From Escherichia phage vB_EcoM-G28, in the sequence record NC_054916.1: a stretch of 64,000 nucleotides of DNA. One strand, 5' to 3'. The translations under genes and the position numbers were made by a program. The stretch's first letter is position 1. Each line of letters starts with the position of its first letter. Positions 26,329 through 64,000 of this stretch are shown here, in pieces. The notes beneath the pieces are model-generated. The model made no database searches. It worked only from the letters and a program-made list of their open reading frames with translations, and was not told where the DNA came from.

Positions 26329-26382
26329 TCCTCATGTTATGTCAGTAAGATTATTATAACACAACACGAGGGACTTGTAAAC
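26329..26382 (-). promoter_or_regulatory. Early promoter plus leader module (54 bp) identical to the one upstream of alc
   Basis: Minus strand carries GTTTACA, a 17-nt spacer, TATAAT and a GAGGA Shine-Dalgarno; same 54-mer at 41844..41897 and 42195..42248. Confidence 0.6.
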
Positions 26383-28439
26383 TATATTTTGAACTTTTTA
26401 GACATTTCGTTGATGTTAACCAAAGAAGCCAAGATTTGAGAAACTTCGTTTTCCTCTTCTTTTGATTCTTCTACAAGGAATTGATTAAATCCAGCCATTG
26501 GACGAACTTCACCAGTTTCCATTAGATGGTCGCCATCATATACCGATTCTTCTAACTGTTCAGAAGGAGGAACGATTGTGCCTTCGATTAGATACTTGTT
26601 ATAAGCAGTTTCTTTCATCATGTACGTACTCACTTTATTAATCTTCAGCAAAATTCCACGCGGTAGAATAACTTCAGCTTCTGATGGAAATCCTGATAAA
26701 TGACCTGGAACGATAACTTTGATTCGCTCAGCTCCTTTAATTACCATACCCGCGCTAGTTTCAGCATCTTCATTGGCATACGTAGAATGACTGCCCATAT
26801 GCATCAAATCTTCAGCATCAACTGAACCTTCTCCTTCACCAGAAAATACTGTGCCGGAATCATCTAGAGCCATATAGTTTTTACCATACTCACCGAAGAT
26901 ATTTGGTTTAAGCGATGTGGATACGAAGTTCTTGAAGTAGAACATTTTATTTTCAATATTATGACGTAAAGTTTTAAAGGTAACTTCTTGTCCACGGTAA
27001 AGTGTAGTTCCTGGAGGAAGAACTGATCCTTTGGCAAAGGCAGAATCCATTGTCTCGATGTGTTTAATAGCTCGTTCCATATATTCTTCACGGGTAGAAT
27101 CCGGTTTACCTAAAAGGAACGAGTTCATTTCAACATATGAATCTGCACAATAATCTTCAATTACATCAGACTCAGCTTGAGTTAATCCTTTTGGAGTTAC
27201 TTCAGTACTTGCATATTCATACGCTTGAGAAGCAGACTCATTAATCAATTTATAAATGCCATTCATGACAAATTGAACAATAGCTACCTTTTCATCTGGT
27301 GTAGCTTTAGAACCTTTAACTAAATCATTGACGATTTTCTTAATAACATCAAAGCTATTAGAAATATTAATGTCAGCAAGATCACTTAAAATTTTATCAG
27401 TTTTATAATCAAAAAATTCTTTATTCTTTAAATATTCTTGAGAACCTTGATATGATATATCGCTCTGTAACTTGATAGATGGATCACGTAAACGCGCATG
27501 AGCCAATGCAATATGATTTCGGAAGCTTTCTAATTCATAATCGCTAGATTTAAAACGGGAAGCACTTCTCATACCACCGATAGCTCCTTTGCTGAAGTTT
27601 GAACCAACCTGAATAACGCCAGAGTTCATTGGTCCTTCTGCTTTATATACCGGAACTTTAGATTCAAACTCTTGATATTTCTTAGCAGCGAAGCTATCAC
27701 CCTGAAGTGAAGCATCGACAGTAGAATATTGAGCTTGTGCTGCTAATCGACGACTAATTTTAGTTTTCTGAATAACAGCTTGATCCGTACGCTTATCATT
27801 TTCTAAAGCAATAGAAGCAGCAACAGCAACAGCTTTAGGAACAGCATTGCCTGTTTTAACATCTACATAAACATCACCAACCTTTGATTCAACTTTTGTG
27901 AATAACTCAGTTGAAATAGGAGGTACACCTGGAATGTCTTCTAAATTGGCATTTTTACGGTAAACCATAATATATGCATATTTCTTATCATAGTCCCAGA
28001 TTTCCTTTAAAAGAACATATCGACCTGCTCCTTTAGTACGTACTAAACGGTCGGCAATAACTTGCATTTGACGAGCTGCACCGTTTGTTTTACTCTTTAG
28101 TACGCGGAATAAGCATGCGTCAATTTTGTACTGTTTCATTGTCTGAAGAGCAGTATCAAAAACCGCATTAATAACACCAATTGGATTTCCACCCAAGTTT
28201 TTAAGTTTAACGAGCGATAGTTTCTCATTAACACCTATCATTACGATATGCATCATTTTATCGCCTGGCTTAACGTTTTTATTTGTATCACCGCCAGAGG
28301 TGTATGTACAAAATCTAAATCCAGGAAGCACGCTTTCTTCACCGGCTTGAATAGCAAAAATTTGAGGTATTTTATGCTTAGGATTTAAGTTAACAACCGG
28401 CGCCGAAGCGCCGTCAAATAATTCTGTAATAAGTTCCAT
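26382..28439 (-). CDS. Alt-family mono-ADP-ribosyltransferase, paralog 1
   Basis: 685 aa; C-terminal R-S-E signature (LYRG, FVSTSL, EAEVILPRG); N-terminus MELITELFD shared with the neighbouring paralog. Confidence 0.8.
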   Translation of the reverse strand: MELITELFDGASAPVVNLNPKHKIPQIFAIQAGEESVLPGFRFCTYTSGGDTNKNVKPGDKMMHIVMIGVNEKLSLVKLKNLGGNPIGVINAVFDTALQTMKQYKIDACLFRVLKSKTNGAARQMQVIADRLVRTKGAGRYVLLKEIWDYDKKYAYIMVYRKNANLEDIPGVPPISTELFTKVESKVGDVYVDVKTGNAVPKAVAVAASIALENDKRTDQAVIQKTKISRRLAAQAQYSTVDASLQGDSFAAKKYQEFESKVPVYKAEGPMNSGVIQVGSNFSKGAIGGMRSASRFKSSDYELESFRNHIALAHARLRDPSIKLQSDISYQGSQEYLKNKEFFDYKTDKILSDLADINISNSFDVIKKIVNDLVKGSKATPDEKVAIVQFVMNGIYKLINESASQAYEYASTEVTPKGLTQAESDVIEDYCADSYVEMNSFLLGKPDSTREEYMERAIKHIETMDSAFAKGSVLPPGTTLYRGQEVTFKTLRHNIENKMFYFKNFVSTSLKPNIFGEYGKNYMALDDSGTVFSGEGEGSVDAEDLMHMGSHSTYANEDAETSAGMVIKGAERIKVIVPGHLSGFPSEAEVILPRGILLKINKVSTYMMKETAYNKYLIEGTIVPPSEQLEESVYDGDHLMETGEVRPMAGFNQFLVEESKEEENEVSQILASLVNINEMSKKFKI

Positions 28440-28442
28440 GAT

Positions 28443-30539
28443 TTATCCTTGAACGAACTTGTAAGGCATGTTTGTAATATCTATGCAAGACGCAATAATT
28501 CCAAGAGATGATTCTACTTTCTGTTTAACATTTGATGAAACAAATGATGCAAAGTCAACTCTGTCTTCTATTTCAATATCACCTGTCATTGCAATTACTT
28601 CACCAGTTTCCATTAGACGGTCACCGTCATAAATTACTGATTCGGTGAGTTCTTCCGTAGTCATAACTTCAGCTTGAATGAGTTTTGTATTATTAGATGT
28701 TGTTCCGTCATTATTAGAAGCATCAGTTATTTTATTAACTTTGACCATCAATCCGCGTGGTAGAATAACTTCAGCTTCTGTTGCTATTCCGAGACTTCCT
28801 GGATATACAACATTAACTTTATGAGCTCCATCAATTGCCCATCCTATTTGAACTTTAACGTATTCAGGATTTTCTTTATACGCTCTTATTTCGTTTGGAT
28901 TAATAGTTATTCCTTCTTCATTTTTATCAACTGTTAATTCATTACGAGCTTCTGGTTCTAAAAGACCAATGCCAGCATGTGTAATTCCAAAACGCCCAAA
29001 AATGATAGGAGTTAAAGAAGTAGATACAAAATTTCTGAAATAGAACACTTTATTTTTAACTAGCGCTTCGTATATAGGAGCAGTCATACTTTGAGCACGA
29101 TAAACTGTAATGCTTTCTGGTATACGGTCACCGTTTTCAAAAGCTGAATCTAAGTTATTTATAGCAGATTCAATTTCTTTTTCACTCATTACATCATATC
29201 GTTCTGGATTGTAGCGTCCTAAAAGAAGATTATTGATGTCAGTATATCCTGAACCGCAATACTCTCTAATGCCGCGCTTTTGTGATGGAGTATATTTAGA
29301 ACCATCACGGGCAATAGTAATATCAATCATTGGACCTGCACCAATTCCAGAAAAACTATAAATCATTCGTTTGATGAATTTAGTTTTTGCTGCGTTCCAG
29401 GAATTTTTAGTTATTTCTTCCCAGACTTCATCTGGCTGCCCTTTACGAGTTTTATTATGTTTATCAAGCCAAGTATCTTTATATTCTTCAAAGAATTTAT
29501 TAATAGCTGCTGCATACTTCTCTAAACATTTTATTGAAGTAGTTGGTTCATTTTTGATCGCGTTAAAAATTACGTCTTTAATTTTTTCAGAAACTTCATT
29601 AACCTCACTTTTTGAAAAGAATTTATAATCATAGTGAAGTTCATCTGCAGTTCCTTCGGCAATAATTTTTGCTGCTTTAGTTTTAGAAGCTAATGAATTA
29701 ATTCCAAGCTTCATTTCTTCTGCTTCGGGAATTAAAGGAGCGGTAGCAGGTTTATTGAAATTAGCTGCGGTAGATTCATACTTCTGGAATAATTCGCTTT
29801 CAAATCTAGAAGATTCCAATGACTGACTTTGCGCAATTGCTCTACGGGAAATTTTAACTTTAACGATTACAGCTTGGTCAGAACGTTTATCATTTTCTTG
29901 CGCAATAGATGCAGCAATTGCCTCATTTTTAGTTACTTGAGCTCCAGTATCTTTATTGATATAAACATCGCCGACTTTCGATTCAACTTTAGTAAAGAGC
30001 TCGGTACTAATTTCCGGAACTCCTGGAATGTCTTCTAGTGATACATTTTTGCGATGTATAAGAATATATGCATACTTTTTATCATAATCCCAGAGTTCCT
30101 TAAGAAGGACGTATCTGCCACCTGAACGACTACGGATAAGTCTATCAGCAATAACTTGAATTTGTTGAGCTTGACCAGCAGTTTTAGACTTAAGAATACG
30201 GAGCATACAGGCATCAATTTTATACTGACGCATCGTCTGCATTGCAACAGTAAAAACTGAATTGATATAATTAATTGGGCTTGGACCAAGACCTTTTAAT
30301 TTGGCAATTGAACCTTTAGCAGTTAATGTAAAAGGAACAATATGCATCATTTTATCGCCCATTTTTAAATCGCGATTAGTATCACCTCCAGATGTATAGG
30401 TACATAAACGAAAGCCCGGTTGTTCAATTGCATCATCAACGTGAACTGAAAAAATTTGTGGTATTTTCTTCTTTGGATTTAAGTTTGTAATCGGAAGAGT
30501 AGTATCTTCGTCAAATAATTCTGTAATGAGTTCCATCAT
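28443..30539 (-). CDS. alt: Alt-family mono-ADP-ribosyltransferase, paralog 2 (gene adjacent to the ligase side)
   Basis: 698 aa; C-terminal R-S-E signature (VYRAQ, FVSTSL, EAEVILPRG); position upstream of gene 30 cluster. Confidence 0.8.
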   Translation of the reverse strand: MMELITELFDEDTTLPITNLNPKKKIPQIFSVHVDDAIEQPGFRLCTYTSGGDTNRDLKMGDKMMHIVPFTLTAKGSIAKLKGLGPSPINYINSVFTVAMQTMRQYKIDACMLRILKSKTAGQAQQIQVIADRLIRSRSGGRYVLLKELWDYDKKYAYILIHRKNVSLEDIPGVPEISTELFTKVESKVGDVYINKDTGAQVTKNEAIAASIAQENDKRSDQAVIVKVKISRRAIAQSQSLESSRFESELFQKYESTAANFNKPATAPLIPEAEEMKLGINSLASKTKAAKIIAEGTADELHYDYKFFSKSEVNEVSEKIKDVIFNAIKNEPTTSIKCLEKYAAAINKFFEEYKDTWLDKHNKTRKGQPDEVWEEITKNSWNAAKTKFIKRMIYSFSGIGAGPMIDITIARDGSKYTPSQKRGIREYCGSGYTDINNLLLGRYNPERYDVMSEKEIESAINNLDSAFENGDRIPESITVYRAQSMTAPIYEALVKNKVFYFRNFVSTSLTPIIFGRFGITHAGIGLLEPEARNELTVDKNEEGITINPNEIRAYKENPEYVKVQIGWAIDGAHKVNVVYPGSLGIATEAEVILPRGLMVKVNKITDASNNDGTTSNNTKLIQAEVMTTEELTESVIYDGDRLMETGEVIAMTGDIEIEDRVDFASFVSSNVKQKVESSLGIIASCIDITNMPYKFVQG

Positions 30540-43868: not shown

Positions 43869-45047
43869 TTAAAAATATTTTTTAAAACTCATCATAACTT
43901 TATCATCAACATCATTATCAATCTGTGCAACAAGGTAAGATGACAGTTCTACTTCTTGTGGCGCGGATTGAACATTATCAGAATTAAGATATTCACGAAT
44001 CCAAGGATATGGATGTTTAACCGGAGCATCGGTAATTGGGCATGGAAGACCGCACTGTTTCATACGAGATACAGTTAAGTAATCAATAAAGCTCCACATG
44101 CTATTTGTATTTAATCCAGGAACATCGCCATCTTTAAATAAATGAACTGCCCAATCTTTTTCTTGGCGGTTAACTTCCATGAAAATATCAACTGCTTCTT
44201 GTTCACACTCTTGAGCAATTTTAACCCATTCATCGCCATCAGTACCGGATTGAAGTTGACGAATAATATATTGGGTGCCTTTAAGGTGAAGCTGCTCATC
44301 ACGTGCAATGAACTTCATAATCTTGGCATTACCTTCCATGATTTCCATGTTCTTATGGAAGTTAAAGGTACATGCAAAAGATACATAAAAACGAATAGCT
44401 TCTAAGGCATTAATAACGTGCAAACAGAGGTAAAGAGATTTCATTAGTGCTCGTTTAGCTTCGGCTTCTTGTTTAATAGCTCGATTTAAACGAAAAACAG
44501 CATCAGGAGATTCTTTAGCTAGTTCTGTAAATTCTTTAGCGTTTTCCCATTCACGGGTTTTAGTCAGAACATCATCATAATAACGTCCAATTGATTCAGC
44601 ACGTTTCATGATAGCTTCATCTAATACAATCTCATCAAATACCTTTGACGGATCAGTATAAAGATTTCGCATGATATGTGTATATGAACGACTATGAATA
44701 GTTTCACTAAAAGTCCATGTAGCAACCCATGTATCAAGACTTGGGTCTGAAATTAATGACATAAGTACAGCAGATGGCGCACGACCCTGAATGCTATCTA
44801 GAAGTGATTGATACTTCAGATTATTAGTAAAAATATCTTGCTGATATTGAGGAAGCTTGTTAAATTGTGCAGCATCCATCATTAAGTTTACTTCTTCAGG
44901 ACGCCAGAAAAATGACAACTGCTTTTCGGTTAAATCTTCAAAAACTTTATGACGTTGAATATCATAACGCGCAATACCAAGACCTGAACCGAAGAACATA
45001 GGTTCTTTTAAAACATCAACTGGATTTGTATTAAAAACTGTAGACAT
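43869..45047 (-). CDS. nrdB: Ribonucleotide reductase small subunit, uninterrupted (no intron)
   Basis: 392 aa from MSTVFNTNPVD; continuous reading frame; ATG overlaps the mobE stop. Confidence 0.9.
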   Translation of the reverse strand: MSTVFNTNPVDVLKEPMFFGSGLGIARYDIQRHKVFEDLTEKQLSFFWRPEEVNLMMDAAQFNKLPQYQQDIFTNNLKYQSLLDSIQGRAPSAVLMSLISDPSLDTWVATWTFSETIHSRSYTHIMRNLYTDPSKVFDEIVLDEAIMKRAESIGRYYDDVLTKTREWENAKEFTELAKESPDAVFRLNRAIKQEAEAKRALMKSLYLCLHVINALEAIRFYVSFACTFNFHKNMEIMEGNAKIMKFIARDEQLHLKGTQYIIRQLQSGTDGDEWVKIAQECEQEAVDIFMEVNRQEKDWAVHLFKDGDVPGLNTNSMWSFIDYLTVSRMKQCGLPCPITDAPVKHPYPWIREYLNSDNVQSAPQEVELSSYLVAQIDNDVDDKVMMSFKKYF

Positions 45048-45778
45048 TAATTTTTCCTCTTTAAAATTCTGCCGCGTTTCCAACCTGGCGGTATAATATC
45101 ATCTTTACCTATAAGCGTGCATTCACTTCCATTATTAATCCATTTCTTACCGCGGATTCCTTTATAATCTCTTGGTTGTATTTTGTCAAACTTTGCATCA
45201 AGTTGATATGCCCAACGAAATCCATAGGCATATTGAAATTTACCCTCAGCACAATATTTGATATTTGACCCGTTTCCATTAACTGATCTGGACGCTGCCG
45301 CAATAGAGTGAAAGGTTTCTATGAAATCCCCATCTAATGAGAATTTATGTATTTCGATAGATGGGCATGCATACCTATTCACGTTTGATACATGTTGTTT
45401 AGTTTCGTTTTTATGATGCTTGCCTAACATTCCTCTAGGATGAGGATTATTTTTCCAATATTTCTTAAAGAAATCAGAATTAGCTTTAGCAAATAATTTT
45501 CTGTGCAAGCTATACAATCTGTTATTAATTCTATTACCAGCTTTATCTGTTGCCATTAACGTTAACGCAGAGGCAAGACCAAAATGGCCTTCATTTATCT
45601 TGCATAGTAATAGATGCGCTATAAAATGTTCTCTAGCTGTTAATTCAACTAAATTTTCTTTATCATCAGAACCTCCCATGCATTTAGGGACTATATGATG
45701 TGTCTCTTTATATTCGGATAAAGGTTCCCGAGCCTGAGCTCGGGAAATTAGATCATTATAGATTTTTTGATAATTCAT
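45047..45778 (-). CDS. mobE: HNH-family homing endonuclease in the nrdA-nrdB intergenic position (MobE/Hef-like)
   Basis: 243 aa; HNH motif ETHHIVPKCMGG...N...EH; ATG overlaps the nrdA stop (TAATG). Confidence 0.8.
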   Translation of the reverse strand: MNYQKIYNDLISRAQAREPLSEYKETHHIVPKCMGGSDDKENLVELTAREHFIAHLLLCKINEGHFGLASALTLMATDKAGNRINNRLYSLHRKLFAKANSDFFKKYWKNNPHPRGMLGKHHKNETKQHVSNVNRYACPSIEIHKFSLDGDFIETFHSIAAASRSVNGNGSNIKYCAEGKFQYAYGFRWAYQLDAKFDKIQPRDYKGIRGKKWINNGSECTLIGKDDIIPPGWKRGRILKRKN

Positions 45779-48042
45779 TACAATTTACACGCTGCACAAT
45801 CGTCGGCTTTAGGAGTTTCTATTTCATAATCATCAGTACCAGAACCATCACGGGTATTATGATAATAGAAATTTTTAATGCCATAATACCATCCGTATAG
45901 CATGTCATCAATCATTACAGACATTGGAACCTTTCCTTTTGGAAAAATCTGCGGGTCATAATATGTATTCGCTGAAGCTGATTGACATACCCATTTCAGC
46001 ATAATAGCTACCTGCGTAAGATAAGGTTTATTACCTTTCTTAGCTAATTTCCATGTATAATCATAGAGGTCTATGTTATGCTCAATATTGGGCACGACTT
46101 GATTAAAGGAGCCCTCTTTTGATTCTTTAACACTTACCGGTCCACGTGGAGGCTCGATACCGTTTGTACTGTTAGAAACTTGGGAAGATGACTCACATGG
46201 CATAAGTGCTGATAATGTGCTATTACGGATGCCAAAGAGCTTAAGGTCTTCCCGCAGCGACGACCAGTCACAAACGTATTTTGGAGCTGCGATTTGGTCA
46301 ATCTTTTTATTGTACCAGTCGATAGGTAATTCGCCTCGAGACCAACGAGTGTCTGAATAATATTCGCAAGGTCCTTTTTCTTTGGCGAGCTTAATGGATG
46401 CTTTAATGAGTCCATACTGTAATCTCTCAAATAGTTCATGTGTTAAATCGTTAGCATCTTCATAAGAAGCAAAGTTACTTGCCAGCCAAGCTGCATAGTT
46501 GGTAACACCTACACCGAGGTTACGACGCTTTTTAGCTTTTTCTGCTTCAGGAACTGGATATCCTTGGTAATCCAAAAGATTATCAAGAGCACGAACTTGA
46601 ACTTCTGCCAATTCATTAATTTTATCTTGGTCTTGCCAATCGAAGTTATCCAACACAAATGCAGATAACGTGCACAATCCAATTTCAGCATCAGGACTAT
46701 TCACATCATTTGTTGGAATAGCAATTTCACAACACAGGTTACTCTGACGAATCGGTGCCTTTTCACGAATAAATGGAGTATAGTTATTCGTATTATCAAT
46801 GAACTGTACATAAATCCTTGCTGTTCCTGATCGTTCAGTCATGAGCAATTCAAATAGTTCACGGGCTTTAATACGCTTTTTGCGAATATTAGGGTCTTTT
46901 TCTGCTGCTTCGTATAATTCGCGGAAACGGTCTTGGTCTTTAAAATAAGAATAATAAAGCTCGCCACCCATTTCATGCGGACTGAACAAAGTAATGTAGT
47001 CGTTCTTTCCAAAACGTTCCATCATCAAATCATTCAGCTGGACGCCATAATCCATATGACGGATACGGTTTTCTTCTACACCTTTGTTATTTTTCAAAAC
47101 GAGAAGATTTTCAACTTCCAAATGCCAAATGGGATAATAAGCAGTAGCAGCGCCGCCACGAATTCCGCCCTGTGAACATGATTTAACAGCAGTCTGAAAA
47201 TGTTTCCAAAAAGGAATAACACCAGTATGGCGTACTTCACCCATGCCAATCTTAGAACCTTCGGCACGAATCATACCAACGTTAATACCAATTCCAGCGC
47301 GTTTAGAGATATATTCAACGATTGAAGCGGAAGCCTTATTGATAGACTTCAGCGAATCACCTGCCTCAATAACAACACATGAACTAAACTGTCGAGTCGG
47401 AGTACGGCAACCAGCCATAATAGGAGTTGGCAATGAAATCTGTCGAGTAGATACTGCTTCATAAAAACGGATAACATGTTTTAATCTATCAACAGGTTCA
47501 TCTTGATGTAATGCCATTCCAATAGTCATAAATGCAAACTGTGGAGTTTCATAAATTTGACCAGTGGTTTTATCTTTAACTAGATATTTTTCTTTTAATT
47601 GCATCGCCCCGGAATAAGTAAATTCCATATCCCGCTCGTGCTTAATTTTTGATTCTAAAAATGTAATTTCTTCTGCTGAATATTTTGACAATAATTCAGG
47701 GTCATATTTACCTTCATTTACACAGTAAGAAATATGGTCAATAAATGAACGTGGTTCATACTGCCCATAAACATGCTTACGAAGAGCAAACATTAAACAG
47801 CGTGCAGCTACATATTGATAATCAGGCTCTTCAACCGAAATAGAATTCGCAGCGGCCTTAATGACAATAGTCTGAATATCATCAGTTGTCATTCCATCAC
47901 GGAGATATGATTTAATATTTTCATATAATTCATAAGGATTTACAGATGTTCCTTCAGCTGCCCAAGATAAAACTTTAATAATTTTTTGTGGATCAAAGCT
48001 CTGAGAAACGCCACTACTTTTGATAACATTAATTAATTGCAT
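45778..48042 (-). CDS. nrdA: Ribonucleotide reductase large subunit
   Basis: 754 aa; size as T4 NrdA. Confidence 0.95.
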   Translation of the reverse strand: MQLINVIKSSGVSQSFDPQKIIKVLSWAAEGTSVNPYELYENIKSYLRDGMTTDDIQTIVIKAAANSISVEEPDYQYVAARCLMFALRKHVYGQYEPRSFIDHISYCVNEGKYDPELLSKYSAEEITFLESKIKHERDMEFTYSGAMQLKEKYLVKDKTTGQIYETPQFAFMTIGMALHQDEPVDRLKHVIRFYEAVSTRQISLPTPIMAGCRTPTRQFSSCVVIEAGDSLKSINKASASIVEYISKRAGIGINVGMIRAEGSKIGMGEVRHTGVIPFWKHFQTAVKSCSQGGIRGGAATAYYPIWHLEVENLLVLKNNKGVEENRIRHMDYGVQLNDLMMERFGKNDYITLFSPHEMGGELYYSYFKDQDRFRELYEAAEKDPNIRKKRIKARELFELLMTERSGTARIYVQFIDNTNNYTPFIREKAPIRQSNLCCEIAIPTNDVNSPDAEIGLCTLSAFVLDNFDWQDQDKINELAEVQVRALDNLLDYQGYPVPEAEKAKKRRNLGVGVTNYAAWLASNFASYEDANDLTHELFERLQYGLIKASIKLAKEKGPCEYYSDTRWSRGELPIDWYNKKIDQIAAPKYVCDWSSLREDLKLFGIRNSTLSALMPCESSSQVSNSTNGIEPPRGPVSVKESKEGSFNQVVPNIEHNIDLYDYTWKLAKKGNKPYLTQVAIMLKWVCQSASANTYYDPQIFPKGKVPMSVMIDDMLYGWYYGIKNFYYHNTRDGSGTDDYEIETPKADDCAACKL

Positions 48043-48359
48043 AAGTCCTCAACTTGAAAATCGTCTTTAAACAATCGGTTAACTATATGAGCTATTATAT
48101 CACCATGACACGGCTTTGGTTTACATGTGCATCCTAGCCTCATTCCACGTAAAGGCTCTAAATGTGCTTTAGTTATTTCTCCGGATTTAATTCGACGTAT
48201 AAAATCTTTTTTGAATAATTCAATGGCAGCCTCCCGGCTGCCAGCATCTTTACCGACGTAATTTCCCCAAAATGTACCGCGGTGAATATTAACATCAAAG
48301 TCGGATTTATATTTATTCACTACCCGGCATAGACGGCCCGCGCGGTGATAATTCAGCAT
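48033..48359 (-). CDS. Hypothetical protein (nrdA.x block)
   Basis: 108-aa ORF. Confidence 0.55.
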
Positions 48360-48599: not shown

Positions 48600-48911
48600 T
48601 TATACCGCCATTTTTCCTTTCAAGACACCGTGGGATTGATAATCTTTGAGAACGAAATCTTTAGGTCTAAGTTTAAGAACATATTTTAATTGTTCTTTAG
48701 TAGAAAGATATCGGAATTTATAAGGTAGACCACTTATTACCAGCTCACAAAGCTCTTTAGGTTCACGCCTCAAAATTTCTTTACATTGTTCTACGTGATT
48801 CATATAGATATGAGTATTACCACCAGAAAATATCAAATCTCCTGGAATAAGATTACACATCTTAGCTACAATATGAACTAACGTAGCATATGATGCAATA
48901 TTAAACGGTAG
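48600..48911 (-). CDS. td: Thymidylate synthase, exon 2
   Basis: 103 codons from LPFNIASYATLVH; the leading Met in the ORF track is an artefact spanning the intron's last G. Confidence 0.9.
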   Translation of the reverse strand, partial: LPFNIASYATLVHIVAKMCNLIPGDLIFSGGNTHIYMNHVEQCKEILRREPKELCELVISGLPYKFRYLSTKEQLKYVLKLRPKDFVLKDYQSHGVLKGKMAV

Positions 48912-49356
48912 CATTATGTTCAGATAAGGTCGTTAATCTTACCCCGGAATTATATCCAGCTGCATGTCACCATGCAGATCAGACTATATCTCCAACTTGT
49001 TAAAGCAAGTTGTCTATCGTTTCGAGTCACTTGACCCTACTCCCCAAAGGGATAGTCGTTAGGCATTTATGTAGAACCAATTCCATTTATCAGATTTTAC
49101 ACGATAAGTAACTAATCCAGACGAAATTTTAAAATGCCTTTTCCATCTCTTTTCAAAATCTTTAGCACTTCCTACATATACTTTATTGTTTAAAGTATTT
49201 TTAATCTGATAAATTCCGCTTTTCATAAATACCTCTTTAAATATAGAAGTATTATTAAAGGGCAGTCCTACAATTTAGCACGGGATTGTCTACTAGAGAG
49301 GTTCCCCGTTTAGATAGATTACAAGTATAAGTCACCTTATACTCAGGCCTCAATTA
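48912..49356 (-). ncRNA. Group I self-splicing intron of td, about 445 nt, with a deleted endonuclease ORF
   Basis: Intron 5' end TAATTGAGGCCTGAGTATAAGGTGACTTATACTTGTAATC and 3' end ...CTGAACATAATG match the T4 td intron as I recall it; exon 1 ends in U. Confidence 0.85.
49059..49226 (-). pseudogene. I-TevI homing endonuclease remnant (55 aa, internal in-frame deletion)
   Basis: MKSGIYQIKNTLNNKVYVGSAKDFEKRWKRHFK joined directly to ISSGLVTYRVKSDKWNWFYINA; the catalytic and DNA-binding regions between them are missing. Confidence 0.85.
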
Positions 49357-50728
<1,372 letters not shown>

Positions 50729-55096: not shown

Positions 55097-58000
55097 ATGG
55101 CCGAGATTAAAAGAAAGTTCAGAGCAGAAGATGGTCTGGACGCAGGTGGCGATAAAATAATCAACGTAGCTTTAGCTGATCGTGCCGTAGGAACTGACGG
55201 TGTTAACGTTGATTACCTAATTCAAGAAAACACAGTTCAACAATACGATCCAACTCGTGGATATTTAAAAGATTTTGTAATCATTTATGATAACCGCTTT
55301 TGGGCTGCTATAAATGATATTCCAAAACCAGCAGGAGCTTTTAATAGTGTACGCTGGAGAGCATTACGTACTGATGCTAATTGGACAACTGTTTCATCAG
55401 GACCTTATCAATTAAAGTCAGGCGAATCAATTTCAGTTGATACTGCAGCTGGTAATGACATTACATTTACTTTACCATCTTCTCCAATTGATGGAGATAC
55501 TATCGTTCTTCAAGATATTGGTGGAAAACCTGGTGTTAACCAAGTTTTAATTACAGCTCCGGTGCAAAGCATTGTAAATTTTAGAGGTCAGCAAGTACGA
55601 TCAGTACTAATGACTCATCCAAAATCACAGATAGTTTTAATTTTTAGTAATCGTCTGTGGCAAATGTATGTTGCTGATTATAGTAGAGAAGCTGTAGTCG
55701 TAACACCGGCAAGTCTTTATCAGGCGCAATCTAACGATTTTATCGTGCGCAGATTTACTTCTGCTTCAGCAATTAATATTAAACTTCCAAGATTTGCTAA
55801 TCATGGCGATATTATTAATTTCGTTGATTTAGATAAACTGAATCCACTTTATCATACAATTGTTACTACATACGATGAAACTACTTCAATACAAGAAGAT
55901 GGAACTCATTCTATTGAAGGTCGTACATCGATTGATGGTTTCTTAATGTATGATGATAATGAAAAATTGTGGAGATTGTTTGACGGGGATAGTAAAGCAC
56001 GTTTACGTATTATAACAACTAATTCTAGTATTCGTCCAAATGAAGAAGTTATGGTATTTGGAGCAAATAACGGAACAACCCAAACAATTGAACTTCAGCT
56101 TCCAACCGATATTTCCATTGGTGATACTGTTAAAATTTCCATGAATTATATGAGAAAAGGACAAACAGTTAAAATCAAAGCTGCCGGTGAAGATAAAATT
56201 GCTTCTTCAGTTCAATTGCTGCAATTCCCAAAACGTTCAGAGTATCCGCCTGAAACTAAATGGGTGACTGTTCAAGAATTAGTTTTTAACGGCGAAACTA
56301 ATTATGTTCCAGTTTTACAGCTTGCTTACATAGAAGATTCTGATGGAAAATACTGGGTTGTGCAACAAAACGTTCCAACAGTTGAAAGAGTTGATTCTTT
56401 AAATGATTCTACTAGAGCAAGATTAGGCGTAATAGCTTTAGCTACACAAGCTCAAGCAAATGCTGATTTAGAAAATTCTCCGCAAAAAGAATTAGCAATT
56501 ACACCAGAAACATTAGCTAACCGTACTGCTACAGAAACTCGTAGAGGTATCGCAAGAATAGCAACTACTGCCCAAGTGAACCAGGATACTACATTCTCTT
56601 TTGCTGATGATATTATCATCACTCCTAAAAAGCTGAATGAAAGAACTGCTACAGAAACTCGTAGAGGTGTTGCTGAAATTGCGACGCAGCAAGAAACTAA
56701 CGCAGGTACTGATGATACTACAATCATCACTCCTAAAAAGCTTCAAGCTCGACAAGGTTCTGAATCATTATCTGGTATTGTAACCTTTGTATCTACTGCA
56801 GGAGCTACTCCAGCTTCTAGCCGTGAATTAAATGGTACAAACGTTTATAATAAAAACACTAATAATTTAGTTGTTTCGCCTAAAGCTTTGGATCAGTATA
56901 AAGCTACTCCAACCCAACAAGGTGCAGTAATTTTAGCAGTTGAAAGTGAAGTAATTGCTGGACAGAGTCAAGAAGGATGGGCAAATGCGGTTGTAACGCC
57001 AGAAACGTTACATAAAAAGACATCAACTGATGCAAGAATTGGTTTAATTGAAATTGCTACGCAAAGTGAAGTTAATACAGGAACTGATTATACTCGCGCA
57101 GTCACTCCTAAAACTTTAAATGACCGTAAAGCAACTGAAAGTTTAAGTGGTATAGCTGAAATTGCTACGCAAGTTGAATTCGACGCAGGCGTCGACGATA
57201 CTCGTATCTCTACACCATTAAAAATTAAAACCAGATTTAATAGTACTGATCGTACTTCTGTTGTTGCTCTATCTGGATTAGTTGAATCAGGAACTCTCTG
57301 GGACCATTATACCCTTAATATTCTTGAAGCAAATGAGACACAACGTGGTACACTTCGTGTAGCTACACAAGTTGAAGCTGCTGCAGGAACATTAGATAAT
57401 GTTTTAATAACTCCTAAAAAGCTTTTAGGTACTAAATCTACTGAAGCACAGGAAGGCGTTATTAAAGTTGCAACTCAGTCTGAAACTGTAGCTGGAACGT
57501 CAGCAAATACTGCTGTATCTCCAAAAAATTTAAAATGGATTGTGCAGAGTGAACCTACTTGGGCAGCTACTACCCTGGTAAGAGGTTTTGTTAAAACTTC
57601 ATCTGGTTCAATTACATTCGTTGGTAATGATACAGTTGGTTCAACACAGTCATTAGAATTATACGAGAAAAATAGCTATGCAGTATCACCATATGAATTA
57701 AACCGTGTATTAGCAAATTATTTGCCGTTAAAAGCAAAAGCCGTAGATAGTAATTTACTGGATGGTCTAGATTCATCTCAGTTCATTCGTAGGGATATTG
57801 CACAAACGGTTAATGGTTCACTAACCTTAACACAACAAACGAATCTGAGTGCCCCTCTTGTATCATCTAGTACTGCTACGTTTGGTGGATCAGTTTCAGC
57901 AAATAGTACACTAACCATTTCTAATACTGATGGAATAGCAACTCGTCTGATTTTTGAGAAAGGACCTCAAACTGGAACGAACCCGGCTCAAACGATGACA

Positions 58001-58969
58001 GTCAGCGTGTGGGGGAATCAATTTAGTGGGGAATCAAACACAACACGTTCTACCGTATTTGAAGTTAGTGATGAAACATCTTATCACTTTTATTCTCAAC
58101 GCGATAAAGATGGTAATATAGCATTTAGCATTAATGGTACTGTAATGCCAATAAATGTGAATGCTTTAGGTTCTTTGAACGCGAACGGCGTTGCAACATT
58201 TGGTAGTTCAGTTACTGCTAATGGCGAATTTATCAGTAAATCGTCGAATGCTTTTAGAGCAATAAACGGTGATTATGGATTCTTTATTCGTAATGATGCT
58301 GCTAACACCTATTTTATGCTTACTGCATCTGGTGATCAGACTGGTGGATTTAATGGATTACGTCCATTATCAATTAATAATCAATCTGGTCAGGTTACAA
58401 TTGGTGAAAGCTTAATCATTGCCAAAGGTGCTACTATAACTTCAGGTGGTTTAACTGTCAACTCGAGAATTCGTTCTCAAGGTACTAAAACTGCTGACCT
58501 ATACACCCGTGCACCAACATCTGATACTGTAGGATTCTGGTCAATTGACATTAATGATTCAGCTACTTATAACCAGTTCCCGGGTTATTTTAAAATGGTT
58601 GAAAAAACTAATGAAGTGACTGGACTTCCATACTTAGAACGTGGCGAAGAAGTTAAATCTCCTGGTACGCTGACTCAGTTTGGTAACACACTCGATTCGC
58701 TTTACCAAGATTGGATTACTTATCCAACGACCCCAGAAGCGCGCACCACTCGCTGGACGCGTACATGGCAGAAAACCAAAAACTCTTGGTCAAGTTTTGT
58801 TCAGGTATTTGATGGGGGTAACCCTCCTCAGCCATCTGATATCGGTGCTTTACCATCTGATAATGCTATAATGGGGAATCTTACTATTCGTGATTTCTTA
58901 CGAATTGGTAATGTTCGCATTATTCCTGACCCAGTGAATAAAACGGTTAAATTTGAATGGGTTGAATAA
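55097..58969 (+). CDS. 34: Long tail fibre proximal subunit gp34
   Basis: 1290 aa; internal ~40-aa repeats (TPKKL...TATETRRG...IAT); size as T4 gp34. Confidence 0.9.
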   Translation: MAEIKRKFRAEDGLDAGGDKIINVALADRAVGTDGVNVDYLIQENTVQQYDPTRGYLKDFVIIYDNRFWAAINDIPKPAGAFNSVRWRALRTDANWTTVSSGPYQLKSGESISVDTAAGNDITFTLPSSPIDGDTIVLQDIGGKPGVNQVLITAPVQSIVNFRGQQVRSVLMTHPKSQIVLIFSNRLWQMYVADYSREAVVVTPASLYQAQSNDFIVRRFTSASAINIKLPRFANHGDIINFVDLDKLNPLYHTIVTTYDETTSIQEDGTHSIEGRTSIDGFLMYDDNEKLWRLFDGDSKARLRIITTNSSIRPNEEVMVFGANNGTTQTIELQLPTDISIGDTVKISMNYMRKGQTVKIKAAGEDKIASSVQLLQFPKRSEYPPETKWVTVQELVFNGETNYVPVLQLAYIEDSDGKYWVVQQNVPTVERVDSLNDSTRARLGVIALATQAQANADLENSPQKELAITPETLANRTATETRRGIARIATTAQVNQDTTFSFADDIIITPKKLNERTATETRRGVAEIATQQETNAGTDDTTIITPKKLQARQGSESLSGIVTFVSTAGATPASSRELNGTNVYNKNTNNLVVSPKALDQYKATPTQQGAVILAVESEVIAGQSQEGWANAVVTPETLHKKTSTDARIGLIEIATQSEVNTGTDYTRAVTPKTLNDRKATESLSGIAEIATQVEFDAGVDDTRISTPLKIKTRFNSTDRTSVVALSGLVESGTLWDHYTLNILEANETQRGTLRVATQVEAAAGTLDNVLITPKKLLGTKSTEAQEGVIKVATQSETVAGTSANTAVSPKNLKWIVQSEPTWAATTLVRGFVKTSSGSITFVGNDTVGSTQSLELYEKNSYAVSPYELNRVLANYLPLKAKAVDSNLLDGLDSSQFIRRDIAQTVNGSLTLTQQTNLSAPLVSSSTATFGGSVSANSTLTISNTDGIATRLIFEKGPQTGTNPAQTMTVSVWGNQFSGESNTTRSTVFEVSDETSYHFYSQRDKDGNIAFSINGTVMPINVNALGSLNANGVATFGSSVTANGEFISKSSNAFRAINGDYGFFIRNDAANTYFMLTASGDQTGGFNGLRPLSINNQSGQVTIGESLIIAKGATITSGGLTVNSRIRSQGTKTADLYTRAPTSDTVGFWSIDINDSATYNQFPGYFKMVEKTNEVTGLPYLERGEEVKSPGTLTQFGNTLDSLYQDWITYPTTPEARTTRWTRTWQKTKNSWSSFVQVFDGGNPPQPSDIGALPSDNAIMGNLTIRDFLRIGNVRIIPDPVNKTVKFEWVE

Positions 58970-58977
58970 GAGGTATT

Positions 58978-60093
58978 ATGGAAAAATTTATGGCAGAGTT
59001 TGGACAAGGATATGTCCAAACGCCATTTTTATCGGAAAGTAATTCAGTAAGATATAAAATAAGTATAGCGGGTTCTTGCCCTCTTTCTGCAGCAGGACCA
59101 TATGTTAAATTTCAGGATAATCCTATCGGAAGCCAAACATTTAACGCAGGTCTTCATTTAAGAGTTTTTGACCCTTCTACAGGAGCATTAGTTGATAGTA
59201 AGTCATATGCTTTTTCGACTTCAAACGATACTACATCAGCTGCTTTTGTCAGTTTCATGAATTCTTTTTCAAACAACAGACTTGTTGCTATATTAACCAG
59301 TGGAAAGGTTAATTTTCCTCCTGAAGTAGTATCTTGGCTAAGAACCGCAGGAACGTCTGCTTTTCCATCTGATTCTATATTGTCAAGATTTGACGTATCA
59401 TATGCCGCTTTTTACACTTCTTCTAAAAGAGCTATTGCATTAGAACATGTTAAACTAAGTAATAGAAAAAGTACAGACGATTATCAAACTATTTTAGATG
59501 TTGTATTTGACAGTTTAGAAGACGTTGGAGCTACAGGATTTCCTAAAAGAACATATGAAAGTGTTGAGCAATTTATGTCAGCGGTTGGTGGAACTAATAA
59601 CGAAATTGCACGTTTACCAACTTCATCCGCGATAAGTAAACTCTCTGATTATAATTTAATTCCTGGCGATGTTCTTTATCTTAAAGCACAGTTATATGCT
59701 GATGCCGATTTACTTGCTCTTGGAACTACAAATATATCTATCCGTTTTTATGATGAATCGAATGGATATATTTCTTCAACACATGCTGAGTTTACTGGAC
59801 AAGCTGGGTCATGGGAATTAAAGGAAGATTATGTAGTTATTCCAGAAACCGCAGCGGGATTTACAATATATGCACAAAGAACTGCTCAAGCTGGTCAAGG
59901 TGGCATGAGAAATTTAAGCTTTTCTGAAGTATCAAGAAATGGCGGAATTTCAAAACCTGCTGAATTTGGCGTCAATGGCATTCGAGTTAATTATGTCTGT
60001 GAATCTGCTTCACCTCCAGATATAATGGTACTTCCTACGCAAGCATCGTCTAAAACTGGTAAAGTGTTTGGACAAGAATTTAGAGAAGTTTAA
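58978..60093 (+). CDS. 35: Long tail fibre hinge connector gp35
   Basis: 371 aa; synteny. Confidence 0.85.
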   Translation: MEKFMAEFGQGYVQTPFLSESNSVRYKISIAGSCPLSAAGPYVKFQDNPIGSQTFNAGLHLRVFDPSTGALVDSKSYAFSTSNDTTSAAFVSFMNSFSNNRLVAILTSGKVNFPPEVVSWLRTAGTSAFPSDSILSRFDVSYAAFYTSSKRAIALEHVKLSNRKSTDDYQTILDVVFDSLEDVGATGFPKRTYESVEQFMSAVGGTNNEIARLPTSSAISKLSDYNLIPGDVLYLKAQLYADADLLALGTTNISIRFYDESNGYISSTHAEFTGQAGSWELKEDYVVIPETAAGFTIYAQRTAQAGQGGMRNLSFSEVSRNGGISKPAEFGVNGIRVNYVCESASPPDIMVLPTQASSKTGKVFGQEFREV

Positions 60094-60155: not shown

Positions 60156-60812
60156 ATGGCTGATTTAAAAGTAGGTTCAACAACTGGAGGCTCTGTCATT
60201 TGGCATCAAGGAAATTTTCCATTGAATCCAGCCGGTGACGATGTACTCTATAAATCATTTAAAATATATTCAGAATACAATAAACCACAAGCTGCTGATA
60301 ACGATTTCGTTTCTAAAGCTAATGGTGGTACTTATTTAAATAGAGTAATTTTTAATAATGGAATAACGATTCCATTAGCAAGTAATTCTGGAAATGGTAT
60401 ATATCCTGGTAATGATGATGGAGCAACATTTGATACTACAAATATGGATATTGTTTCGTGGTATGGTATTGGTTTTAAATCATCACAAGGAACAGCAGGT
60501 AGAACTGTAGTAATTAACACGCGAAATGGAGATATTAGCTCAAAGGGTGTAATTGAAGCATCACAAATACGCGCAACTTCATTATCTCCAGTAAATAATT
60601 ATGACCTTACAAGGAAAGATTATGTTGATGGAGCAATAAATATTGTTACAGCAAACGCAAACTCTAGAGTATTACGCTCTGGAGATACTATGACAGGAAA
60701 TTTAACTGCGCCAAACCTTTTTTCACAGAATCCTGCATCTCAACCTTCGCATGTTCCACGATTTGATCAAATTGTTATTAAGGATTCTGTTCAAGATTTC
60801 GGCTATTATTAA
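60156..60812 (+). CDS. 36: Long tail fibre distal connector gp36
   Basis: 218 aa; synteny. Confidence 0.85.
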   Translation: MADLKVGSTTGGSVIWHQGNFPLNPAGDDVLYKSFKIYSEYNKPQAADNDFVSKANGGTYLNRVIFNNGITIPLASNSGNGIYPGNDDGATFDTTNMDIVSWYGIGFKSSQGTAGRTVVINTRNGDISSKGVIEASQIRATSLSPVNNYDLTRKDYVDGAINIVTANANSRVLRSGDTMTGNLTAPNLFSQNPASQPSHVPRFDQIVIKDSVQDFGYY

Positions 60813-60820
60813 GAGGACTT

Positions 60821-63800
60821 ATGGCTACTTTAAAACAAATACAATTTAAAAGAAGCAAAACTGCAGGAGCACGTCCTGCCGCTTCAGTATTAGCCGAAGG
60901 TGAATTGGCTATAAACTTAAAAGACCGCGTACTTTTTACTAAAGACGACCAAGGAAATATTATTGATCTGGGTTTTGCTAAAGGCGGTAGCATTGACGGG
61001 AATGTTATTCATACAGGAAACTATAATCAAACTGGTGATTATACTTTAAATGGCACTTTCACTCAGACAGGTAATTTTAATTTAACTGGTATTGCTCGAG
61101 TAACTCGCGATATTATTGCCGCCGGGCAGATTATGACCGAAGGCGGAGAACTTATTACAAAAAGTTCAGGTACAGCACATGTTCGTTTTCATGATTCAGC
61201 TGATCGTGAACGTGGAATCATTTATGCCCCGGCTAATGATGGATTAACTACGCAAGTAGTTAATATCCGCGTTCAAGACTACGCCGCTGGTGATGAAAGC
61301 ACCTATGCATTTTCAGGCAGTGGCCTATTTACTTCACCTGAAGTATCAGCATGGAAATCTATGTCAACTCCTCAGATTTTGACAAATAGAGTTATTACTA
61401 ATAATAAATCTACGAGCGATTATGACATTTATTCTATGGCAGACAACGTTCCATTGTCTGAAAGCACTACTGCTATTAATCATCTCCGTGTTATGCGCAA
61501 TGCTGTAGGCGCTGGTGTATTCCATGAAGTTAAAGATAATGATGGAATAACTTGGTATACTGGAGATGGCTTAGACACTTATCTTTGGTCGTTTACCTGG
61601 TCCGGTGGATTGAAAGCAGGCCATTCTATTTCTGTTGGTACTCCTGGTGGCAATAAAGGATACTCTGAATTAGGGACTGCTTCAATTTCTCTTGGCGATA
61701 ATGATACCGGGCTAAAATGGCATCAGGATGGATATTATTTCAGCGTCAATAATGGAACGAAAACATTTTTATTTAGCCCTAGCGAAACAACTAGCCTAAG
61801 AAAATTTGTAGCTGGATATTCTACTAATGGAACAGATTTAACTACTCCTCCGACTGAAAACTATGCATTAGCCACTGTTGTTACTTACCATGATAATAAC
61901 GCGTATGGTGACGGTCAAACTCTTTTAGGTTATTATCAGGGCGGTAATTATCACCACTATTTCCGCGGTAAGGGTACTACAAACATTAATACTCATGGCG
62001 GTTTGTTAGTTACTCCAGGCAATATTGACGTTATTGGTGGTTCGGTTAATATTGATGGTCGTAATAATGCTTCTACGCTGTTGTTTAGAGGTAACACAAC
62101 TGGTGCTAGTTCAGTTGATAATATGACAATTTCTGTATGGGGTAATACCTTTACTAATCCTAGTGTAGGTAATCGTAAAAACGTTATGGAAATTTCTGAC
62201 GCAACTAGTTGGATGAGCTATATTCAAAGACTTACTACCGGTGAAGTAGAAATGAACGTCAATGGTTCATTTGAATCATCTGGTGTTACTGCTGGAAATA
62301 GAGGAGTTCACACAACAGGCGAAATTTCATCTGGAGCAGTGAATGCGCTTCGCATTTGGAACGCAGATTATGGAGCCATTTTTAGACGTTCAGAAGGCAG
62401 TCTTCATATTATTCCAACTGCTTACGGTGAAGGTAAACATGGTGATATCGGTCCACTTCGCCCGTTTAGTATGGCTTTAGATACCGGTAAAGTTACTATT
62501 CCAGATTTACAATCAAGTTACAATACGTTTGCTGCTAACGGTTATATTAAATTTGTTGGTCATGGAGCGGGTGCCGGCGGTTATGACATTCAATATGCTC
62601 AAGCGGCTCCTATTTTCCAGGAAATTGATGATGATGCTATAAGCAAATATTATCCTATTGTTAAACAGAAGTTTTTAAACGGTAAATGCGTTTGGTCTTT
62701 AGGTACTGAAATTAATTCGGGTACATTTGTTTTACACCATATCAAAGAAGATGGATCACAAGGCCATACATCTCGTTTTAATCAAGACGGCACAGTTAAT
62801 TTCCCTGATAATGTTCAGGTTGGTGGTGGTGAAGCTACTATTGCTCGCAATGGTAACATCTGGTCTGATATCTGGAAAACGTTTACTTCTGCCGGTGATA
62901 CTACAAATATTCGCGATGCTATTGCGACTCGTGTTTCGAAAGAAGGCGACACGATGACTGGCAAATTAATCGTTAAAAGAGACTCCGACGCTATTAACTT
63001 AGCTGCGCCTTCAGCGACTGATGCAAGTTACCTTCTTTCTACTGGCGGTGGAGAAAATCAATGGTATATTGGTAAAGGCGGCGCTGATAATACCGTATCA
63101 TTTTACAACTATAAAACCAATGGGGCTGTGCAAATTAACTCTATTGGTGAAATCGCGCTGATTCCACAAGGTGCTGCAACATTTAACTTTAACCGCGATC
63201 GTCTCCATATAAATGGGACTCAATGGACTGCACATCAAGCTGGTGACTGGGTTAACCAATGGCATCAAGAAGCTCCTATATTTGTGGATTTTGGTAGTGT
63301 CGGCAATGACTGCTATTATCCTATTATTAAAGGAAAATCTGTTATTACGAATGAAGGATACGTATCTGGTGTTGATTTCGGTATGCGCCGTATCACTAAC
63401 CAATGGGCTCAGGCTATTATCCGTGTTGGTAACCAGGAAAATGCTAGCGATCCGCAAGCTATCTTCGAATTCCACCATAATGGAAACATGTACGTTCCTG
63501 ACATGGTTAAAGCTGGAGTAAGATTATCAGCTGGTGGAGGTGACCCTGCATGGACAGGCGCATGTGTTGTTATTGGTGATAATGACACTGGGTTAGTTCA
63601 TGGCGGTGATGGACGAATTAACATGGTTGCAAATGGAGTGCATATTGCTTCATGGTCGTCCGCTTACCATCTCCATGAAGGTCTTTGGGATACTACTGGT
63701 GCTTTGTGGACTGAACACGGAAGAGCTATTATTTCTTTTGGTCATTTAATCCAACAAAGCGATGCCTATTCCACATTTGTCCGCGATGTTTATGTCCGTT

Positions 63801-64000
63801 CTGATATTCGTGTTAAAAAAGACCTTGTTAAATTTGAAAATGCTTCTGAGAAGCTTTCTAAAATTAACGGTTACACTTATATGCAGAAGCGAGGCCTAGA
63901 TGAAGAAGGCAATCAGAAATGGGAACCTAACGCCGGTTTGATAGCTCAAGAAGTTCAAGCTATTTTGCCTGAATTAGTTGAAGGTGACCCTGATGGCGAA
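60821..64000 (+). CDS. 37: Long tail fibre distal subunit gp37 (3' end beyond the window)
   Basis: ATG at 60821 after GAGGA; frame open for 1060 codons to the window end; N-terminus MATLKQIQFKRSK as in T4 gp37; absent from the ORF track because no stop lies in the window. Confidence 0.9.
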   Translation, partial: MATLKQIQFKRSKTAGARPAASVLAEGELAINLKDRVLFTKDDQGNIIDLGFAKGGSIDGNVIHTGNYNQTGDYTLNGTFTQTGNFNLTGIARVTRDIIAAGQIMTEGGELITKSSGTAHVRFHDSADRERGIIYAPANDGLTTQVVNIRVQDYAAGDESTYAFSGSGLFTSPEVSAWKSMSTPQILTNRVITNNKSTSDYDIYSMADNVPLSESTTAINHLRVMRNAVGAGVFHEVKDNDGITWYTGDGLDTYLWSFTWSGGLKAGHSISVGTPGGNKGYSELGTASISLGDNDTGLKWHQDGYYFSVNNGTKTFLFSPSETTSLRKFVAGYSTNGTDLTTPPTENYALATVVTYHDNNAYGDGQTLLGYYQGGNYHHYFRGKGTTNINTHGGLLVTPGNIDVIGGSVNIDGRNNASTLLFRGNTTGASSVDNMTISVWGNTFTNPSVGNRKNVMEISDATSWMSYIQRLTTGEVEMNVNGSFESSGVTAGNRGVHTTGEISSGAVNALRIWNADYGAIFRRSEGSLHIIPTAYGEGKHGDIGPLRPFSMALDTGKVTIPDLQSSYNTFAANGYIKFVGHGAGAGGYDIQYAQAAPIFQEIDDDAISKYYPIVKQKFLNGKCVWSLGTEINSGTFVLHHIKEDGSQGHTSRFNQDGTVNFPDNVQVGGGEATIARNGNIWSDIWKTFTSAGDTTNIRDAIATRVSKEGDTMTGKLIVKRDSDAINLAAPSATDASYLLSTGGGENQWYIGKGGADNTVSFYNYKTNGAVQINSIGEIALIPQGAATFNFNRDRLHINGTQWTAHQAGDWVNQWHQEAPIFVDFGSVGNDCYYPIIKGKSVITNEGYVSGVDFGMRRITNQWAQAIIRVGNQENASDPQAIFEFHHNGNMYVPDMVKAGVRLSAGGGDPAWTGACVVIGDNDTGLVHGGDGRINMVANGVHIASWSSAYHLHEGLWDTTGALWTEHGRAIISFGHLIQQSDAYSTFVRDVYVRSDIRVKKDLVKFENASEKLSKINGYTYMQKRGLDEEGNQKWEPNAGLIAQEVQAILPELVEGDPDGE

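Follow-up and report, generated by a model that had tools for sequence, protein, structure and literature searches.

In phages T2 and T6, gp37 undergoes proteolytic cleavage at its C-terminus and is then capped by gp38, and this T2-type processed fibre predominates in the T4 superfamily (Trojet et al. 2011, PMC3157838). That paper credits the processing of T2 gp37 to Drexler, Riede and Henning 1986. S16-like fibres apparently occur in most T-even phages (Dunne and Leiman, PMC6851490). For phage S16 itself, PMC7917993 describes how the last 113 residues of gp37, an intramolecular chaperone, are removed by autocleavage after trimerisation, at DLNVS^SDRRIKK, and how this uncovers the surface on which gp38 docks. 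The same paper gives DVYIR^SDGRLKI as the predicted site in the Tequatrovirus fPS phages and describes the DVYIR strand as a gp38 docking element.

Endosialidase tailspikes, phi29 gp12 and MYRF carry a domain of the same family, PF13884, as the gp37 described here, but as carriers they differ from it, being tailspikes, neck appendages and a eukaryotic transcription factor rather than a fibre gp37. To our knowledge, the cleaved end is not capped by any adhesin in any of the three. Ser and Lys are said to form the catalytic dyad, a result attributed to Schulz et al. in 2010, and the tip complex of S16 gp37 with gp38 (PDB 6F45) was reportedly solved by Dunne et al. in 2018. The general chaperone gp57A is still required by T2-type fibres.

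The T4 fibre is built differently. Its gp37 binds the receptor itself, with gp38 and gp57A as its chaperones, and Pfam finds a Collar domain and His-rich Phage_fiber repeats at the end of the protein, and no Peptidase_S74 match. The 183-aa gp38 encoded downstream of T4 gene 37 has no Pfam match and is unrelated to that of the T2 type; the note on T4 gene 38 in RefSeq (NC_000866) states that the unrelated “gp38” of the T2 subfamily is an adhesin. Set against these systems, the window (the whole 64 kb stretch of DNA that we analysed) almost certainly ends inside gene 37 of a Tequatrovirus, a T-even phage of T2 type, in which gp37 cleaves itself and is capped by gp38. This fibre architecture is textbook T2-type and is already known.

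Gene 37 and its surroundings in the window

The features discussed below are as follows.

55097-58969, plus strand: gene 34, from the ORF list, in the long tail fibre operon
58978-60093, plus strand: gene 35, from the ORF list, in the long tail fibre operon
60156-60812, plus strand: gene 36, a 218-aa ORF, from the ORF list, in the long tail fibre operon
60821-64000, plus strand: gene 37, long tail fibre distal subunit of T2 type, partial, from its open frame, its start codon and its likeness to RB27 gp37
60821-62740, plus strand: proximal region and shaft of gp37 (aa 1-640), which alone are related to T4 gp37 (35% identity)
63557-63799, plus strand: distal tip of mature gp37 (aa 913-993), a homologue of the gp38-bearing beta-helix tip of S16 gp37
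63797-63802, plus strand: predicted autocleavage site R993/S994, from DVYVR^SDIRVKK aligned with the S16 and fPS sites
63800-64000, plus strand: intramolecular chaperone (Peptidase_S74) domain, N-terminal 67 of about 111 expected residues, from Pfam PF13884

Genes 34, 35 and 36 (Pfam Gp34_trimer and Phage_T4_gp36) have the same order and sizes in RB27, T4, T2 and eight contigs (L002-L009) that encode a gp36 identical to that of the window. An ORF scan of the window found a single frame that reaches its end, open from nt 60782. The first ATG in this frame, at 60821, lies eight bases beyond the stop of the gene 36 ORF and has a ribosome-binding site, AAGAGGA, on its 5' side. The protein starts MATLKQIQFKRSKTAGARPAASVLAEGELAINLKDR..., which is the T-even gp37 N-terminus, with MATLKQIQFKRSK... 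right after the start codon. Positions 60821-64000 hold exactly 1060 complete sense codons without a stop, in agreement with the sequence-only reading, which had described the frame as still open after 1060 codons and so longer than the 1026 aa of T4 gp37 (NC_000866). Relatives of this gene are annotated as “long tail fiber distal subunit”.

Among annotated records, the closest to the window's gene 37 is that of RB27 (Enterobacteria phage, Tequatrovirus), which has the same operon order, 34-35-36-37. RB27 gp37 (YP_009102449, 1104 aa) is 95% identical to the window protein, without gaps, over the 1059 residues compared; the 51 substitutions include one stretch before the cleavage site that reads HLIQQSDA in the window and HLVQESDA in RB27. 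Gene 37 is thus incomplete in the window and, as the RB27 protein is collinear with it, the stop is expected some 44 codons past the window edge. The remainder past position 64000 is expected to be close to ALLRLNYNGVIGLNTAAINEHTAEIAELKSEIEELKALVKSLLK, then a stop.

At the DNA level, 631 phage records matched the whole of gene 37 and 200 matched the last 1.2 kb of the window by megablast, and no record in the phage collection exceeded 93.6% identity across the gene. A 73-mer and a 27-mer chosen across window-specific substitutions found no exact match in viral_contigs or in metagenome_contigs. The best match to gene 37 among the contigs with identical gp36 is L002, at 95.8% over the first 2.16 kb, and RB27 stands at 92.9% overall and 96.3% in the last 1.2 kb. 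Since the first 2.16 kb is nearest L002 and the last 1.2 kb nearest RB27, gene 37 is, judged from these identities, recombinant among T-even relatives. L002, which is a metagenome contig, falls to 87% identity in the last 0.77 kb of the gene.

Similarity to T4 is confined to the proximal part. In the N-terminal attachment region, the first 60 aa of the two gp37 proteins are nearly identical and the genes occupy the same operon position, and BLASTP aligns T4 residues 1-743 with window residues 1-640 (E 4e-99, 35% identity), with nothing significant beyond. A weak Gp34_trimer match falls at aa 450-550 of the window protein (Pfam).

Elsewhere in the window, the thymidylate synthase gene td is split (48600-49905, minus strand). 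Its exon-1 ORF (49354-49905) matches Thymidylat_synt positions 1-175 and its exon-2 ORF (48600-48914) positions 176-266. Between them, at 48960-49143, lies a group I intron match of 40.9 bits (E 1.4e-8; the Rfam gathering score is 50); no Rfam family matched at its gathering threshold in the 64 kb window, and no other group I intron reached it. The gap between the exons, about 440 nt, holds no ORF of at least 90 aa. In RB3 and RB5 the match to the same 521 bases breaks into two pieces, and the 1092 bp that they span include I-TevI; from this two-piece match the td intron looks like one stripped of most of its homing endonuclease ORF. A 243-aa ORF with NUMOD1, which is typical of homing endonucleases, lies at 45047-45778 on the minus strand between the Ribonuc_red_sm ORF (43869-45083) and a 754-aa ORF, presumably nrdA (45778-48042), and is probably a free-standing mobile endonuclease gene; nrdB (Ribonuc_red_sm) is a single 404-aa ORF. 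A 108-aa ORF with DUF4326 (48033-48359, minus strand; 78.7 bits) sits between td exon 2 and the presumed nrdA. Two adjacent ORFs of 685 and 698 aa (26382-30539, minus strand) are alike in size and may be paralogues. The 64 kb window has no tRNA genes.

The chaperone domain and the distal tip

We computed the domain, its motif, the homology to S16 and the gene order in relatives. The Pfam family Peptidase_S74 (PF13884, “chaperone of endosialidase”) matches gp37 at aa 994-1053 with 48.3 bits (E 1.3e-12; curated cutoff 22 bits), over positions 1-57 of the 58 in the profile. We also considered that the motif might be matched by chance, and rejected this on the E value. The domain opens with S994-D-I-R-V-K999, where S994 is nt 63800-63802, so both the Ser at the first position of Peptidase_S74 and the Lys five residues on are present in SDIRVKK. 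The pattern S-D-x-R-x-K occurs once in the 1059 aa of gp37 examined.

In an alignment of six S74-type C-terminal domains (A1), S1, D2, R4 and K6 are invariant. Searched against solved chains, the profile of these six matched S16 gp37 (6F45_A, E 4.7e-28), the MYRF autoprocessing domain (7DC3, E 3.9e-10), a tail fibre (8JOV, E 5.6e-06) and the phi29 gp12 chaperone domain (3GUD, E 0.0037), and all four alignments start at domain position 1 or 2 (S-D). These matches, all from the S-D onwards, establish by profile comparison that the domain belongs to the intramolecular chaperone family. The sequence-only reading had suspected an S74-type intramolecular chaperone C-terminus with an S-D-x-R-x-K motif in a peptide that it quoted as ...VRSDIRVKKDLVKFENASEKLSKINGYTYMQKRG..., which is found in gp37. 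It had named a Pfam search as a check and the lack of an S74 hit as grounds for refutation; the search was positive, and the Pfam score and the structure-profile matches bear the claim out.

The domain crosses the window edge, with 67 residues here against 111 in the collinear RB27 protein. In relatives the chaperone domain continues as EALLRLNYNGVIGLNTAAINEHTAEIAELKSEIEELKALVKSLLK, beyond the window, and in RB27, L002, L004-L006 and L009 it makes up the last 111 aa, ending ...AEIAELKSEIEELKALVKSLLK, aligned with the S16 C-terminus. The helical C-terminal segment, which is the same in S16 and the RB27-type relatives, would therefore be supplied here by comparison with these relatives, as it is expected to fall past the end of the window. 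With the 111-aa domain of RB27 as query, tblastn returned 1229 phage records, 177 of them at no less than 95% identity. The whole set of relatives extends from Tequatrovirus to the fibres of T5-like phages, of Klebsiella and Vibrio phages and of cyanophages.

The tip that precedes the domain is anchored in a solved structure. The last 192 residues of RB27 gp37 (aa 913-1104) are identical to the window's wherever the window has them, and match residues 25-204 of PDB 6F45 chain A, the “long tail fiber distal subunit” of Salmonella phage S16, with E 1.7e-43. The aligned region takes in the mature tip, the S-D-R-R-I-K motif and the helical segment at the C-terminus. By this match and by alignment, the tip region of the window protein is homologous to the gp38-bearing tips of S16 and T2. 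It ends in the strand DVYVR, directly before the predicted cleavage site. The alignment of DVYVR^SDIRVKK with DLNVS^SDRRIKK of S16 and DVYIR^SDGRLKI of the fPS phages places the predicted end of mature gp37 at R993.

S16 thus resembles the window in having a homologous tip and chaperone domain with a common S-D-x-R-x-K motif, but it reads DLNVS/S where the window reads DVYVR/S, and its host is Salmonella, whereas the hosts of the window's subtype are of the E. coli/Shigella type. Compared with S16 and T2, the last tip segment of the subtype, just ahead of the cleavage site, is longer by about 12-17 residues; relative to S16 these are ..WSSAYHLHEGLWDTTGALW.. and ..SDAYSTF... This addition of about 12-17 residues is common to RB27 and many other phages, and it is the sole subtype-specific feature. 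T2 has the same C-terminal chaperone architecture, from NVYIR/SDIRLK at residue 1243 of its 1341-aa gp37, with gene 38 (annotated as an adhesin) and holin t next. However, T2 gp37 is about 240 aa longer than the window's, and its chaperone domain has 99 aa against 111 and is 40% identical. RB27 gp37 has the same S74 match as the window protein, at aa 994-1053.

Gene 38 and the alternative readings

We took a match to both PF21721 (Gp38_N) and PF05268 (GP38) as the mark of a gp38 adhesin. In RB27, the next gene begins 31 nt after gene 37, and its 258-aa product scores 79.6 bits for Gp38_N and 238 bits for the GP38 adhesin domain; holin t and asiA come next. All eight contigs with identical gp36 encode a gp37 of 1080-1109 aa with Peptidase_S74, a gp38 of 257-261 aa with Gp38_N and GP38, and Phage_holin_T, and the annotated order in T2 is gp37, long tail fiber adhesin, t holin. 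A gene for the gp38 adhesin therefore directly follows gene 37 in 10 of 10 relatives, by Pfam in RB27 and L002-L009 and by annotation in T2. The gene 38 adhesin of the window phage would lie outside the window, and we take it from these relatives. The check named by the sequence-only reading, whether a gene 38 homolog follows, can thus be answered through relatives, in which one does follow, but it is an adhesin unrelated to the chaperone of T4. The reading had also counted a gene 38 immediately downstream of a T4-like needle as grounds for refutation; as a criterion this was poorly framed, given that the T2-type gene 38 occupies the same place.

Because gene 38 is outside the window, one could imagine a phage in which the chaperone is cleaved off and there is no gp38 adhesin, so that the tip of gp37 binds the receptor as in the T5 L-shaped fibre protein pb1 or the endosialidase tailspikes; S74-type domains are indeed frequent in fibres without a separate adhesin (T5-like, Klebsiella, Vibrio, cyanophage). 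We consider this very unlikely, since in all ten relatives the gene directly after gene 37 encodes Gp38_N/GP38 or an annotated adhesin, the homologous tip of S16 was crystallised with gp38 bound, and the tip strand DVYVR is close to the DVYIR docking element for gp38 (PMC7917993). We give equally little weight to the proposal that gp38 is absent, or that the RB27-type insertion of 12-17 residues makes a receptor-binding tip once the chaperone is released. If true, it would mean a Tequatrovirus fibre that works like T5 pb1 and not like T2.

Fewer chances still attach to the S74 domain being a decayed, non-functional remnant in a fibre that relies for its folding on separate chaperones alone (gp57A or a T4-like gp38). 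Nothing specific speaks for such decay beyond the domain being only partly visible in the window. The Pfam score is more than twice the cutoff, S, D, R and K are intact, T4-type tip domains are absent, and the 66 residues that can be seen agree at 100% identity with RB27 and several other phages. Together with conservation of the domain at 95-100% in 177 phage records, this identity indicates purifying selection. The last alternative, to which we accord practically no credence, is a gp37 of T4 type, lengthened by insertions in the shaft, with a His-rich needle at its end that depends on the T4 gp38 chaperone. The N-terminal 60 residues, nearly identical to those of T4, would fit it. Such a needle is recognised by Collar, Phage_fiber and homology to T4 residues about 800-1026, yet significant similarity to T4 gp37 ends at aa 640, and Pfam finds neither Collar nor Phage_fiber in the window protein, where T4 has both, while S74 is absent in T4. 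With BLASTP stopping at aa 640 and the Pfam domains differing, the T4-type needle tip was rejected.

Processing and receptor recognition

For the T2-type fibre that we favour, cleavage, capping by gp38 and the seat of receptor specificity are drawn from publications on T2 and S16. On this reading, gp37 would first be a precursor of about 1104 aa, the last 111 or so residues of which, from S994, form the Peptidase_S74 intramolecular chaperone. This domain would aid the register and folding of the three chains into the distal beta-helical tip. The protein would then cleave its own R993-S994 bond, Ser994 acting as nucleophile and Lys999 as base by analogy with the family, after which the cut domain (111 residues) would dissociate and leave a mature gp37 that ends at R993. 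The exposed ...DVYVR tip would be capped by one copy of gp38 from the downstream gene, through the N-terminal domain of gp38, and the host receptor would be bound by the hypervariable loops of gp38. C-terminal autoprocessing of the window's gp37, which is of the RB27-like subtype, is accordingly a prediction by analogy with these phages.

The sequence-only reading had expected folding unlike that of T4 and possibly a different receptor specificity, and both folding and receptor recognition do differ, as T4 homology stops near aa 640 and T4 is without S74. The distal part is unrelated to the needle tip of T4, but the fibre is of the ordinary T2 type and not an unusual mosaic. Because the T2-type gp38 is an adhesin, receptor specificity would reside in gp38 and not in the tip of gp37.

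Knowledge of gp37 C-terminal processing dates from 1986 and the structure of the S16 tip complex from 2018, and the value of the finding is mainly correct annotation, with little beyond. Under the T2-type assignment, mature gp37 should end at R993, and host range should be set by the downstream gp38 adhesin and not by gp37. Engineering of this fibre would then mean swapping gp38, either alone or along with the gp37 tip that matches it.
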